Assembly (NCBI GenBank): GCA_043816005.1
Contig: JBDRIM010000024.1
Location: 1-32,946 of the forward strand
Length of the DNA stretch: 32,946 nt
Source of the DNA: Candidatus Micrarchaeota archaeon
Lineage (GTDB): Archaea > Micrarchaeota > Micrarchaeia > Anstonellales > Bilamarchaeaceae
Direction of reading: 5' to 3'
Shown here in pieces: positions 6,396-32,946 of the stretch (position 1 is its first letter; every line of letters begins with the position of its first letter). The notes under the pieces are model-generated. The model was not told where the DNA came from and ran no database searches. It saw only the letters and a program-made list of their open reading frames with translations. The position numbers were made by a program, and so were the translations under genes.

Positions 6396-6412
6396 GTAAG
6401 AACAAGAAAAAA

Positions 6413-6491
6413 TGGACAACTCAGCGAACGTCGTTCGCTTAAGTCCAATAAAAGGAGGTTAAAAAGGGACCAAGGTCCCTTTTATTGGACA
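6413..6491 (-). mobile_element. Double-hairpin insertion in the tRNA-Ala 3' trailer with TGTCCA direct repeat
   Basis: Sense TGTCCA-ATAAAAGG..CCTTTTATTGGAC-TTA-AGCGAAC-GAC-GTTCGCT-GAGT-TGTCCA-TTTTTT, with a 73-nt spacing between the direct repeats. Confidence 0.5.
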
Positions 6492-6500
6492 CGGAGGGAT

Positions 6501-6618
6501 ATGTTCCCCGCTTTTTAGTAAAAAGCGGTCAAAAACAATCTGTTGATTTTGCCTTCGGCAAAATGCGAAAGCATTTTCATCAACTAATTTTTGACCGACT
6601 TTTTTTCAAAAAGTCGGA
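6501..6618 (-). other. tRNA-Ala intron 2 (118 nt, non-canonical T-loop position 58/59)
   Basis: BHB-like: central helix GTTC/GAAC, bulges AA|T and AT|A. Removal restores the T-loop TTCAAAT. Confidence 0.85.
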
Positions 6619-6639
6619 TTGAACCCCCAGCCTTCCACA

Positions 6640-6679
6640 AATTGGAAGTTTTTAGTTAAGTTTTTTTCCAAAAAACTTA
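6640..6679 (-). other. tRNA-Ala intron 1 (40 nt, canonical 37/38)
   Basis: Strict BHB: central helix TTGG/CCAA, bulges CG|T and TT|T, outer stem AAGTTTTT/AAAAACTT. Confidence 0.9.
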
Positions 6680-6716
6680 CGCCAAGCGGATGCTCTACCG
6701 TTGAGCTACGTGCCCA

Positions 6717-6751
6717 TTGTTCTTTTTTAGAAAAAAAGAACCAAAAAACTG
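6717..6751 (-). repeat. T/A-tract hairpin element in the tRNA-Ala 5' leader
   Basis: 33/35 nt identical to the reverse complement of 30641-30675. The two differences form one compensatory pair. Confidence 0.8.
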
Positions 6752-6768
6752 GCTGTTTAAAAAAAAAA

Positions 6769-6993
6769 TTAAGATGGAGATATGAAAGTTACAGAGTCGC
6801 CTCGGAGCAATATTGTTCCTACACCTCTCTTCACTTCACCGTTGACCATCTGCTCTGCTTTTTCTAGAACGATGTTCATGTGTACGTCATATGCTATCAT
6901 CACACCTCGGAATTCGCTTCCACCTTTCATCCCGATGATGACTGTGTTGTTCAATGCGCTATTCAATACATCAAATGGTCTCTTTTCTGGCAT
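6769..6993 (-). CDS. Sm-like archaeal protein (Lsm/SmAP1)
   Basis: MPEKRPFDVLN..., Sm1 motif (FRGVMIAYDVHMNIVLEKAE) and Sm2 motif (LLRGDSV). Confidence 0.95.
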   Translation of the reverse strand: MPEKRPFDVLNSALNNTVIIGMKGGSEFRGVMIAYDVHMNIVLEKAEQMVNGEVKRGVGTILLRGDSVTFISPS

Positions 6994-7138
6994 AAAAATT
7001 TCACCTTCCTTTTTCATTAATAAAAATTTTTATTATTGATCGTTTCGACGATCAATGGCATAAAAATTTCACGCTCCTTTTTCTTTATCTTTGAGGGAAA
7101 TTTTTATAATTGAACGGTTTTCCGTTCAATGGCATAAA
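6988..7138. repeat. Two tandem double-hairpin units (68 and 74 nt) triplicating the Sm start region
   Basis: TGGCATAAA at 6988, 7056 and 7130. Each unit has an ATAAAAATTT/AAATTTTTAT stem and a 9-bp ATTGA..TCAAT hairpin. Confidence 0.85.
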
Positions 7139-7223
7139 TCCACCTCAAAAAATTAAAACTTATAGCATCTTTAATCCAGTTAATATTTAAATCTTCTACT
7201 TATATTTTGTTTCTGGTGCTATT

Positions 7224-9072: not shown

Positions 9073-9183
9073 AGGTGTAAAAATGTTCGTGCATTTTTAC
9101 TTAATAAAAATTCGAAATTTTTATAAGTGTAAAAACGCTGATGTGTTTTTACTTAATTGAAATCTGAATTTCAATAAGGTGTA
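9073..9183 (+). repeat. Two tandem 52-nt double-hairpin units triplicating the aIF5A RBS
   Basis: GTGTA at 9075, 9127 and 9179. Each unit has a 10-bp GTAAAAA..TTTTTAC hairpin, TTA, and an 8-9-bp hairpin, with covarying pairs. Confidence 0.85.
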
Positions 9184-30456: not shown

Positions 30457-30713
30457 GCCCCTGTAGCGCAGAGGTAGCGCGCGTCCTTGGTACCAACTTT
30501 TTGGAAACGCGATTGTTGCGATGCAACAATGCGCCCATTGTTCGATTCGAACAATTGGGAGTTGGATCAAAACTGGTTGTTTGAAAACCCTTTCGGGTTT
30601 TCGGTGAAAACCATTTTTGCGTAAGCAAAAATTAGCAATTCAGTTTTTTGGTCCTTTTTTTCTAAAAAAGGACAAAAAGGACGAGGTCACGAGTTCAATT
30701 CTCGTCGGGGGCT
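30457..30713 (+). tRNA. tRNA-Thr(GGT) with one long intron (exons 30457-30492, 30678-30713)
   Basis: Spliced GCCCCTGTAGCGCAGAGGTAGCGCGCGTCCTTGGTA|AGGACGAGGTCACGAGTTCAATTCTCGTCGGGGGCT forms a complete cloverleaf. Confidence 0.93.
30493..30677 (+). other. tRNA-Thr intron (185 nt, 37/38), multi-hairpin with a relaxed splice motif
   Basis: Central helix TTGG/ACAA has one mismatch. The intron is built of at least five hairpins plus an enclosing stem. Confidence 0.8.
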
Positions 30714-30823: not shown

Positions 30824-32946
30824 ATGAAGTTAATCAGAATTTTCTTGTTAATACTGATTTTATCAGCTTTTAACTTTGCTGCAACTCGTGCAGTAAACGG
30901 TACTGCTACTTCTTGTGTTCCAGGAGCAGTTGGTAATTATTCCACAATCCAAGCTGCAATAAATGCTGCGAGTGACGGAGATACAATAATTGTCTGTTAT
31001 CAAGGTCCGTCATACTCAGAAAATGTAGATATTAACAGATCAATAAACTTATATGGAAACCAATCAGCAGTAAGAGTTTATGCTTCAAACAGTTCTGATC
31101 ATGTTTTTCATATTTCAAGTCAATATGTAAATGTAAGTAATTTTACTTTAAGCGGTGCAGCTAATTCTCTTAAATCAGGCATTCGGATTTATGCATATAT
31201 GAATCCTTCTTATTCCACCATAACCAATGTGACTGTTCACAGTAGTTATAATGGTATCAGTAATGAAAAACCAGATATTGGTAACACTTTCATCTCAAAT
31301 ACAATATACAATTGTAGCGCGGGTTTCTATATCTTCTCACCAAACAATACTTTCATTTCTAATCTTGTTTATAACACTTCATTTGCCTTTGATATAAAAA
31401 ACTCATCTAATATTCTAACTTCCAACACAGCCAGCAACAACTCAGTTGGTTTCATGGTAGAATCTTTTAGCAACAACAATATATTAACAAACAACGTGGC
31501 CAATAACAACACTCAAGCTGGTTTCTCCATATCCTCCTCAAGTAATTACAACAACCTAACAAATAACACCGCATATAACAACTCCTACGGTTTCTATCTA
31601 TCCTCAAGCAATTATACTACATTAACAAACAACACAGCCTCCAACAACTCTCAAAATGGTTTCTATCTATCATCAAGCAATAACAATAATTTAACCTCCA
31701 ACACAGCAAATAACAACTCCCAAAGTGGTTTCTATCTATCCTCAAGCAATAACAATAATTTAACCTCCAACACAGCAAATAACAATACACAACAAGGTTT
31801 CTCATTATCTTCAAGCAACAATACTATACTGACAAATAATACTGCATTTATCAATATATATAATGGATTTCTTTTAACTTCAAGCAACTACAATACCTTA
31901 ACTAATAATACGGCGTATAACAATACTGAAGTTGGCATATACCTCTACACGAACTCTGACTATAATAATCTAACTAATAATCTCGTATACAATAACATTT
32001 TGTTTGGTTTCTCCATATCTTCAAACAATTATACTACATTAACAAACAATACGGCCAACAACAACAACAATTCTGGTTTCTATCTATCTTCAAGTAATTA
32101 TACTACATTAACAAACAACACAGCCAACAACAATTCTAATTTTGGTTTCTCCATACCTTCAAGCAATAACAACAATTTAACTTCCAACACAGCCTATAAT
32201 AACACCCAATCTGGTTTCTATCTAACTTCAAGCAATTATACTACATTAACAAACAACACCGCCTCCAACAACAACAATTCTGGTTTCTCTTTAAGTTCAA
32301 GCAATTACAATAACTTAACAAACAACACAGCCTCCAACAACTCCAATTATGGATTCTCTATATCTTCCTCCAATTACGTTACTTTAACCTCTAACACAGC
32401 CTCCAATTCTAGTGGTGGTTTCTCCATATCTTCAAGCTCTAACAACAACTTAATCTTCAACACGGCCCACAACAATACTATTCGTGGTTTCTACATATCT
32501 TCAAGCTCTAACAACAACATAACCTCTAACACAGCCTCCAACAACACTGGGAGTGGTTTCTATCTATCCTTAAGCAGCAACAACCTACTAACTTCAAACA
32601 TGGTTTATGGTAATTCGTCGTATGGAATTTTCCTACTATCTACAACTAACAATACTTTTGTAAATAATTTAGTGGCCAACACTGGTTATGGATTTGTTAT
32701 AGCACAAGACAATATCAGTAATTATACGACAAACAATATTGAAAATTGTAGTTATGGTTTTTATATTAGTTCTTATGTCGGAGGAGGCGGAAAAGGTCCG
32801 TTAGTCTATTATAACGGTTCATTGGTGACTACTTTCTTAGGAAATAATCTCACAAATACAACATATGCAATTTACTTAAATAATTCAAACTTAACTTTCT
32901 CAGGTAACAATGGAATTTACAATACCCCATCAACAGGAAAAGAAAT
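30824..32946 (+). CDS. Secreted or surface parallel beta-helix (NosD/CASH-type) repeat protein, 3'-partial
   Basis: Signal peptide MKLIRIFLLILILSAFNFA, YSTIQAAINAASDGDTIIV, and repeats of GFYLSSSNxNxLTNNTAxNN. Open to the window end. Confidence 0.88.
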   Translation, partial: MKLIRIFLLILILSAFNFAATRAVNGTATSCVPGAVGNYSTIQAAINAASDGDTIIVCYQGPSYSENVDINRSINLYGNQSAVRVYASNSSDHVFHISSQYVNVSNFTLSGAANSLKSGIRIYAYMNPSYSTITNVTVHSSYNGISNEKPDIGNTFISNTIYNCSAGFYIFSPNNTFISNLVYNTSFAFDIKNSSNILTSNTASNNSVGFMVESFSNNNILTNNVANNNTQAGFSISSSSNYNNLTNNTAYNNSYGFYLSSSNYTTLTNNTASNNSQNGFYLSSSNNNNLTSNTANNNSQSGFYLSSSNNNNLTSNTANNNTQQGFSLSSSNNTILTNNTAFINIYNGFLLTSSNYNTLTNNTAYNNTEVGIYLYTNSDYNNLTNNLVYNNILFGFSISSNNYTTLTNNTANNNNNSGFYLSSSNYTTLTNNTANNNSNFGFSIPSSNNNNLTSNTAYNNTQSGFYLTSSNYTTLTNNTASNNNNSGFSLSSSNYNNLTNNTASNNSNYGFSISSSNYVTLTSNTASNSSGGFSISSSSNNNLIFNTAHNNTIRGFYISSSSNNNITSNTASNNTGSGFYLSLSSNNLLTSNMVYGNSSYGIFLLSTTNNTFVNNLVANTGYGFVIAQDNISNYTTNNIENCSYGFYISSYVGGGGKGPLVYYNGSLVTTFLGNNLTNTTYAIYLNNSNLTFSGNNGIYNTPSTGKE
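31520..32600 (+). repeat. About 69-nt coding tandem repeat (23 aa)
   Basis: GGTTTCT starts at 31589, 31658, 31727 and 31796. Several units are nearly identical at the DNA level. Confidence 0.8.

Follow-up and report, generated by a model that had tools for sequence, protein, structure and literature searches.

A dispersed hairpin module with a predicted triple-helix fold at tRNA junctions of a Micrarchaeota genus

The window analysed here is a stretch of 32,946 nt from a Candidatus Micrarchaeota archaeon, whose genome is called G000 below, and it contains two interrupted tRNA genes. tRNA-Ala(GGC), encoded by the minus strand (6715..6486), is interrupted by a 40-nt intron at 37/38 and a 118-nt intron at 58/59, and tRNA-Thr(GGT) is on the plus strand (30457..30713) with one 185-nt intron at 37/38. 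A short hairpin element, called a module here, occurs in the leader of the former gene and in the introns of both. Its T/U-rich form is called hairpin-last and the A-rich reverse complement hairpin-first. The features are as follows, with the evidence in brackets where it applies.

6769..7017, minus strand: Lsm (Sm-like) gene, whose 3' spacer contains the leader module (PF01423, E 9e-20)
6717..6751, minus strand: hairpin-last module in the Lsm/tRNA-Ala spacer; in minus-strand order, a U6 third tract (6748-6743), a linker, and the loop 6731-6729 between two stem arms (6741-6732 and 6728-6719) (33/35 match, tract pattern, folding, orthologue in the relative G023)
6680..6715, minus strand: tRNA-Ala(GGC) exon 1, positions 1-37 (spliced alignment, intron-less orthologues)
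6640..6679, minus strand: tRNA-Ala 37/38 intron, 40 nt (spliced alignment; bulge-helix-bulge central helix 4/4)
6619..6639, minus strand: tRNA-Ala exon 2 (spliced alignment)
6501..6618, minus strand: tRNA-Ala 58/59 intron, 118 nt (spliced alignment; central helix 4/4)
6486..6500, minus strand: tRNA-Ala exon 3 (spliced alignment)
6412..6485, minus strand: tRNA-Ala trailer of a different repeat type, with two other hairpins and an inverted, then a direct copy of the tRNA 3' end
30457..30492, plus strand: tRNA-Thr(GGT) exon 1 (spliced alignment)
30493..30573, plus strand: hairpin-first module with which the Thr intron opens; its loop contains two nested hairpins, and an A4 tract is present
30574..30640, plus strand: core of the Thr intron, with paired flanks and small hairpins (spliced alignment; partly by eye)
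30641..30675, plus strand: hairpin-last module on the 3' side of the Thr intron, with its U6 tract at 30644-30649 and its hairpin at 30651-30673
30678..30713, plus strand: tRNA-Thr(GGT) exon 2 (spliced alignment, orthologues)

The leader module comes after the Lsm stop codon and a T10 run, and stops 1 nt short of the tRNA-Ala 5' end. The 37/38 intron of this tRNA starts with a hairpin-first module (6679-6657) and an A5 tract, and its 58/59 intron has one module at each end, hairpin-first on the 5' side (6616-6596) and hairpin-last on the 3' side (6528-6508). In the Thr intron, the 3' module stops 2 nt before the 3' splice site, and the core is similar to the cores of several other G000 introns (partly by eye). 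Trailers in which direct and inverted copies of the tRNA 3' end are split by other hairpins are also found elsewhere in G000 (C43:5040-5350, C60:1-330, C64:76100-76200 and C54:15034-15230), and some tRNA leaders duplicate the tRNA 5' end. Other short paired repeats, which are perfect hairpins, lie upstream of Lsm (6988-7150) and eIF5A (9075-9171), and positions 30824-32946 encode an open-ended, secreted-looking protein with Asn/Ser-rich tandem repeats of 23 aa (69 nt), probably a beta-helix.

When 6717-6751 is compared with the reverse complement of 30641-30675, 33/35 positions are identical and the mismatches fall on both bases of a single stem pair (6721/6739), which is T-A in the former and C-G in the latter. 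No inverted repeat in the window is longer than the one formed by the two 35-mers. The best match in each of 100 random windows, generated by a first-order Markov model with the same dinucleotide make-up, carries 9-14 mismatches. Folding gives each 35-mer a stem of 10 bp and a loop of 3 nt, with RNA energies of -7.6 and -10.0 kcal/mol (z -2.2 and -2.9). The match, the compensatory pair and both positions had been claimed in the initial annotation, and all are borne out by direct comparison and by spliced tRNA alignment. Misassembly, with which the repeat would fall, is unlikely because a contig of run X2 bridges the leader copy (6552-6803, with 0 mismatches and one gap in a T-run) and G023 has the element at the same place in its Ala leader, with a loop insertion. 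Contig depth at the 35-mer is high in two runs; this depth sums other organisms and is therefore not a copy number of the 35-mer.

The tRNA genes of G000 were located with a custom spliced aligner, which gave 34 tRNA loci and 48 introns (one misaligned locus was excluded from later counts). The Thr and Ala introns have bulge-helix-bulge (BHB) or relaxed-BHB junctions with central helices of 3/4 (Thr) and 4/4 and 4/4 (Ala), and their removal restores the tRNA; intron-less orthologues of both tRNAs exist. Judged by sequence, they are ordinary relaxed-BHB introns whose excision is predicted. With automatic boundaries, the central helix is at least 3/4 in 34/48 G000 introns. Many introns of G000 have a module as their first or last part, and the module-built introns here range from 26 to 217 nt. 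The host EndA matches PDB 4fz2, which we take to be the ARMAN-2 epsilon2 endonuclease, along its full length (E 2e-133). Most tRNAs are concealed from standard tools by their module-built introns: RF00005 gave 13 matches in G000 versus the 34 loci of the spliced alignment, and in the window neither ARAGORN without intron search nor Rfam found a tRNA, both Ala and Thr being missed. In the 23S rRNA of another relative, G045 (L248), there are insertions of about 52, 41 and 191 nt when compared with the Rfam model, and the 191-nt one has a module at each end.

The repeat unit is larger than the hairpin and adds a third homopolymer tract (6743-6748 in the leader copy) and about 10 weakly conserved bases past it. 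The T/U-rich strand reads G-Tn-G..C-Tn-NNN-An-G.., that is, a hairpin (variable stem and Tn-loop-An) plus the third tract. The outer stem of 4-7 bp occurs in 32 stem types, nearly all paired and freely varying in sequence, and is spanned by mostly 1-3 free linker bases; the loop consensus is strand-polar. Among 77 distinct contexts from metagenome and viral loci, the compensating stem pair is T-A in 54, C-G in 23 and mixed in 0, and a T.G intermediate at this pair is present in G045. Both the architecture and the compensation in the stem are established by these counts.

A strict pattern gave 43 hits in G000, equal to 42 sites as one hairpin is read on both strands, and 0 in the reversed genome; 0/43 copies lie inside long ORFs. 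An earlier loose pattern had been dropped (60 hits versus 26 in the reversed control). The family was found in 40/40 genomes of the genus, with the strict pattern in G000 and a looser one in the 39 others (1-94 copies, some genomes having only 1-3). This looser pattern is abundant in a few other genera and near control level across most of the order. An ungapped scan with the 35-mer returned 6 places at <=8 mismatches, query included, and the pattern of the 35-mer subtype returned 25 places in 13/40 genomes of the genus (control 0) and was found in 10/401 genomes of the phylum, all from the same genus. A subfamily with a variable loop of 19-24 nt (25 distinct copies, third tract equal in 25/25) is located in tRNA leaders and tandem arrays (L095, L035, L108, L041, L043, L046, L009, L252, L224, L115 and others).

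Placement was scored for 174 modules: 43 from G000, 95 from G045 and 36 from G023, the latter two sets coming from loci around 101 and 42 pattern hits. Of these, 124 lie <=10 nt from a called tRNA exon edge, 9 lie further away, 2 overlap a miscalled exon, and 39 have no called tRNA, several of them sitting at tRNAs missed by the templates (by eye). In 123/124 junction copies, it is the hairpin that lies against the exon, with the third tract on the far side, so that the polarity at junctions is a matter of observation. The hairpin-last form precedes 3' splice sites and tRNA 5' ends (54 copies), and the hairpin-first form follows 5' splice sites and tRNA 3' ends (70 copies). The initial annotation had proposed that the element also occurs outside introns and is linked to the junctions of tRNA processing. 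Both proposals hold, since leaders, trailers and intron ends all carry modules and, when the distances of the pattern hits to tRNA exon edges were tabulated, placement in G000 was far from random (35/42 sites <=10 nt from a called exon edge versus about 1.6% of non-coding positions). The same orientation before the processing site, as it had described, is correct for the two 35-mers of the window and fails as a rule, the reverse form being at least as common (70 versus 54). Its suggestion that the element survives only in trimmed RNA is insufficient, because it leaves unexplained the spacing of 0-9 nt and the fixed polarity in leaders and trailers, as well as copies before start codons, which are not known to be trimmed.

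Not all copies lie at tRNAs. In relatives, 19 copies of the 35-mer subtype were placed by eye. Trailers contain 10 of them, and 4 are at the 5' ends of introns; another 3 neighbour fragments of tRNA ends, and of the last two, one precedes a start codon and the other follows a GTPase gene. The orientation of the two window copies is the minority one among the 19. Modules ending 5-25 nt upstream of apparent start codons, in hairpin-last orientation, were seen by eye at L226, L229, L232, L249, L247, L212 and L071. An insert of two modules lies between the D'- and C'-like boxes of an apparent C/D-box sRNA (L201, L242 and L252, by eye), loci for which Rfam gave no significant match. A conserved non-coding stretch with k-turn-like boxes stands beside a module after a YchF-like GTPase gene (G000 C5:19567-19760 and L088, by eye), and Rfam gave no family for it.

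The third tract has the same length as the A-run of the hairpin in 193/210 copies, a count whose independence is overstated because related genomes and copies enter the tract statistics. By source, the tracts are equal in 41/43 (G000), 86/95 (G045), 31/36 (G023) and 35/36 (other loci), compared with shuffle means of 16, 35, 15 and 13. In families with identical linkers, 79/92 tracts are equal (shuffle mean 54, maximum 67). Where the two hairpins of an inward pair are unequal (29 pairs), the tract agrees with its own hairpin in 50/58 cases, and the two members agree with each other in only 3/29; tail-to-tail pairing of the two modules of an intron is thereby ruled out as the source of the tract lengths. 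At one orthologous site, all three tracts have shifted from 6 to 7 together. A second G in the third strand is present in 36/40 sequence types with a GG duplex versus 19/47 otherwise (Fisher 1.5e-6).

The covariation of the three tracts is itself established, and because the third tract equals and follows its own hairpin, it points to an intrastrand triple helix. In the predicted fold, the first Tn tract would fold back into the major groove of the Tn/An helix to give n T.A-T (U.A-U) triples, which would often be capped by G.G-C. The tract constraint is similar in both transcript orientations, 63/70 (A-rich) and 50/54 (T-rich), and therefore the fold would not be used only in sense RNA; such similarity is expected if it acts in a DNA strand or in either strand. 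As comparative evidence that a dispersed repeat forms a natural triple helix, length covariation among three tracts is unusually direct. The module linker, in crossing the outer stem, may be compared with loop 1 of an H-type pseudoknot, which crosses the deep groove. No covariation was found for a 2-bp pseudoknot between the 3-nt loop and upstream bases (p 0.40), and 6/25 long-loop copies pair upstream, in the manner of an H-type pseudoknot, better than shuffles at p<=0.05. Both window copies (T6, 5-nt linker, T6, 3-nt loop, A6) fit the definition of ITxF, which in the portion of PMC4666352 used here is three compatible blocks of 6-15 nt with loops of 1-6 nt; family members with n = 3-5 fall below this length minimum. 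ITxF counts T.A-T with C.G-C (parallel) or G.G-C (antiparallel) as canonical triads. The tract of the window copies would give T.A-T triads, and the base that covaries beside it is a G in parallel order, a non-canonical arrangement. In the MALAT1 helix, G is disfavoured in the Hoogsteen position, according to the relevant section of PMC4836648.

Between G000 and G023, SMC identity is 77% and 4-fold sites are 36.7% identical (278 sites) versus 30.0% by chance. Conservation between the two nonetheless extends to the Ala leader and one Leu leader, the trailer of His and one complete Leu intron. This last, the 37/38 intron of tRNA-Leu(CAG) (G000 C8:818-1005 versus L086), is 57/57 identical and its exons differ at two positions, which reflects either strong constraint or recent transfer of the intron. 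As orthologous copies are conserved despite near-saturated 4-fold sites, high identity is no clock. The recent spread that had been concluded from the 33/35 match is thus unsupported, the 31-mer being present in 13/40 genomes of the genus and in bacteria. As a side observation, the open frame of the SMC genes of three relatives (L018, L020 and L021) runs to about 1,675 aa and has a long insertion close to residue 37, which is probably an intein.

Gain and loss were also followed at single sites. In the Lsm/tRNA-Ala spacer, a module that stops at the tRNA is present in 11/23 readable genomes, where it belongs to several sequence types, and is absent in 12/23 (6/29 loci were unparsable, and shuffles gave <=1 module). 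For the leader copy, no clean pair of empty and filled sites was found among the relatives compared. Gain or loss of whole introns is observed, the Thr 37/38 intron being missing in 11/30 orthologues, including that of G023, and varying widely in the others. This absence and the 1-94 copies per genome fit mobility, and conservation at orthologous sites fits host function as well as mobility.

The exact 31-mer pattern was also found in 118 metagenome stretches. The fetched 31-mer loci are L297-L376, L415:20001-20043, L416:3001-3034 and L417-L420; a bacterial-type GC-rich flank (median GC 0.62) was found in 68/82 of those examined (80 metagenome, 2 viral). Named records of Acetobacteraceae gave 12 hits in 5 plasmid records (control 0), with stem types in common with the archaea: plasmids of Pseudoroseomonas and of Komagataeibacter/Novacetimonas carry the 31-mer motif and two other archaeal stem types, often as doublets. 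The bacterial copies lie in intergenic DNA in all gene orientations. Sharing across loci, species and domains is therefore observed; between archaea and Acetobacteraceae it would be due to transfer or convergence. The two viral-contig hits lie in a tail-gene cluster whose closest match is a Rhodovastum plasmid, so that they do not point to an archaeal vector. When the window leader was compared with plasmids and phages by BLAST, only chance-level matches were returned.

Candidate mobilisers were also considered. A Y1 transposase (PF01797) was not found in G000 (86% complete) and is present in 9/40 genomes of the genus; IS110 is present in 1/40 and reverse transcriptase (RT) in 10/40, all of these counts coming from incomplete genomes. 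No association was found between the presence of a candidate and module copy number (p 0.15 and 0.19; Y1 p 0.15). Modules occur at 2/10 fetched Y1 loci, in one case about 200 nt after the gene. Y1, IS110 and RT do not track copy number and are unsupported as mobilisers. The RT genes of G000 lie at C41:53160-54304 and C4:4187-4798, one of them partial and the other broken across two frames. Among inward pairs, the two modules have a linker in common in 0/41 cases, and therefore they are not fold-back copies of each other; classical terminal inverted repeats are likewise ruled out. Copies of tRNA ends of 8-15 nt, which would be candidates for target-site duplications, flank some leader and trailer inserts (by eye), with none at the window leader or in introns.

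The reading that we favour, and to which we would give about an even chance, is that the module is a structure-selected, non-autonomous dispersed repeat with a single-strand triple-helix fold, which is copied beside helices and RNA ends and supplies the ends of introns. Single modules or inward-facing pairs would be copied as single-stranded nucleic acid by a structure-recognising enzyme, and each copy would come to lie with the foot of its hairpin up against a stable helix or the end of an RNA, such as a tRNA arm, a tRNA terminus or an rRNA helix. In exons, copies would persist only if a broad-specificity epsilon2-type splicing endonuclease removes them, and would so become intron ends; at termini, they would be removed along with leaders and trailers. 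Since survival in exons would need splicing and terminus copies would be trimmed, targeting and survival would both act. Some copies would then be retained for long periods. A more specific form of this, put forward only tentatively, is a structure-defined mobile unit of DPANN and Acetobacteraceae with polar insertion at RNA-gene helices, in which the endonuclease makes the tRNA and rRNA introns and the enzyme is other than Y1, IS110 or RT. If that were true, the module would be an active source of new archaeal tRNA and rRNA introns.

On the other hand, the module may be a host-functional RNA. The hairpin-last form would then be a minimal ENE-like U.A-U triplex guarding the new 3' ends that RNase P leaves on the Lsm mRNA and EndA on the excised intron, comparable to the MALAT1 helix that precedes a tRNA-like element, and the hairpin-first form would block 5' decay or aid processing. 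Should Lsm and the tRNA share one transcript, as their adjacency in many relatives suggests, the Lsm mRNA would indeed end with the leader copy, and the Hoogsteen-pyrimidine-purine strand order can form in RNA, as stated in the part of PMC4666352 drawn on here. Also in keeping with a host function are the 11/23 Ala leaders that carry modules of differing sequence, the orthologous copies that are kept (including the 57/57 intron), the joint shift of three tracts from 6 to 7, and the H-type pseudoknots that some copies of the long-loop subfamily could form (6/25, p<=0.05). We nevertheless find it rather unlikely. The A-rich orientation is as frequent and constrained (63/70), yet purine-motif triplexes are not formed in RNA according to the same part of PMC4666352; 12/23 Ala leaders are without the module and some genomes have 1-3 copies; and no RNA end is known that would be capped by the copies upstream of start codons or by those in bacterial intergenic DNA.

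That no candidate enzyme tracks the module could also mean that it is an enzyme-free by-product, where the fold would stall replication or repair near tRNA hairpins, and template switching or gene conversion between tRNA loci would copy and correct modules. Many leaders and trailers do have direct and inverted tRNA-end copies and tandem truncated modules, and BoxC and TMECO triplexes are described in the section of PMC4666352 cited as having no known transposase and marking unstable sites. However, template switching gives arm symmetry, not the length match of the third tract or the T.G intermediate, and it does not explain the identical 31-mers at non-homologous loci and in Acetobacteraceae; nor do the paired modules of one intron share a linker (0/41). 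We consider this origin distinctly improbable. Still more doubtful is a terminator or a protein-binding site in duplex DNA (phased A-tracts) that recurs at RNA genes. U-tracts terminate archaeal transcription, the leader copy comes after the Lsm stop codon and the T10 run, and the tracts are spaced about one helical turn apart, but most copies lie within introns and in both orientations. Furthermore, the stem is free in sequence but paired, and the tracts co-vary from 3 to 7 without fixed spacing, which argues for a single-strand fold rather than a duplex site.

The introns of this genus are built with an end module that recurs under a strict rule of position and is found also at tRNA ends and in rRNA, and this gives concrete test substrates. 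The motif types shared with cultivable, harmless acetic-acid bacteria make assays of folding, RNA stability and mobility feasible. The arrival of archaeal tRNA introns is stated as an open question in the relevant part of bioRxiv 10.64898/2026.10.13.758758. In Thermoproteales (Fujishima et al. 2010, as cited in passages of PMC4033280 and of the same preprint), transposed tRNA introns occupy different tRNAs and positions under BHB constraint. The families there consist of related introns, whereas the shared unit here is a sub-intron end module in both orientations that also occurs outside introns, in rRNA and in bacteria. The multi-intron tRNAs of ARMAN-2 (PMC3239211, in part) are similar to those here in their non-canonical positions, relaxed BHB and full-length three-unit enzyme homologue. 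Their two introns are 13 and 25 nt long, and no repeat is described in that part of the source, in contrast to the module-built introns of 26-217 nt here. MALAT1 ENE (sections of PMC4836648 and PMC8457004) has the same order of U-tract, U-tract and A-tract ending just before a tRNA(-like) 5' end. The module is far smaller, dispersed and dispensable, with an equally common reverse complement, and the likeness is limited to strand order and position.

Among dispersed repeats, BoxC/PIT/TMECO and ITxF (Holder et al. 2015, PMC4666352, in the portion used here) are like the module in being dispersed and non-coding, with three equal blocks and short loops. For BoxC/TMECO, the same portion also gives copy numbers that vary among relatives, inverted pairs, and no known transposase or function. 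The T-rich strand of the module has the order of ITxF class IV and the A-rich strand that of class II. BoxC/TMECO, as described there, belong to Proteobacteria and have a G/C-rich consensus with 9-nt C and G blocks, whereas the module has A/T tracts and is found in archaea; it differs from BoxC/ITxF as there defined by an extra variable outer stem of 4-7 bp and by many tracts of 3-5, under the ITxF minimum of 6. The module is strictly polar at tRNA junctions, and the term tRNA occurs 0 times in PMC4666352. In the main-text literature, mostly outside subscription journals, no account of the module was found; the ITxF supplements may list A/T-rich motifs. REP/BIME/REPIN-RAYT (Di Nocera et al. 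2013, relevant part of PMC3733652) share with the module short non-coding hairpins, single or in inverted doublets, and a patchy copy number. Unlike these, the module has no GTAG/CGTC tag (flank logos, 32 stem types), an unconserved stem and a third tract, and Y1 genes are generally not flanked by it and have no tie to its copy number. MITEs have matching terminal inverted repeats, which the module pairs lack (0/41). The module is therefore a member of neither BoxC/TMECO, REP/REPIN nor MITEs; it works like BoxC/TMECO and is distributed like REP/REPIN.
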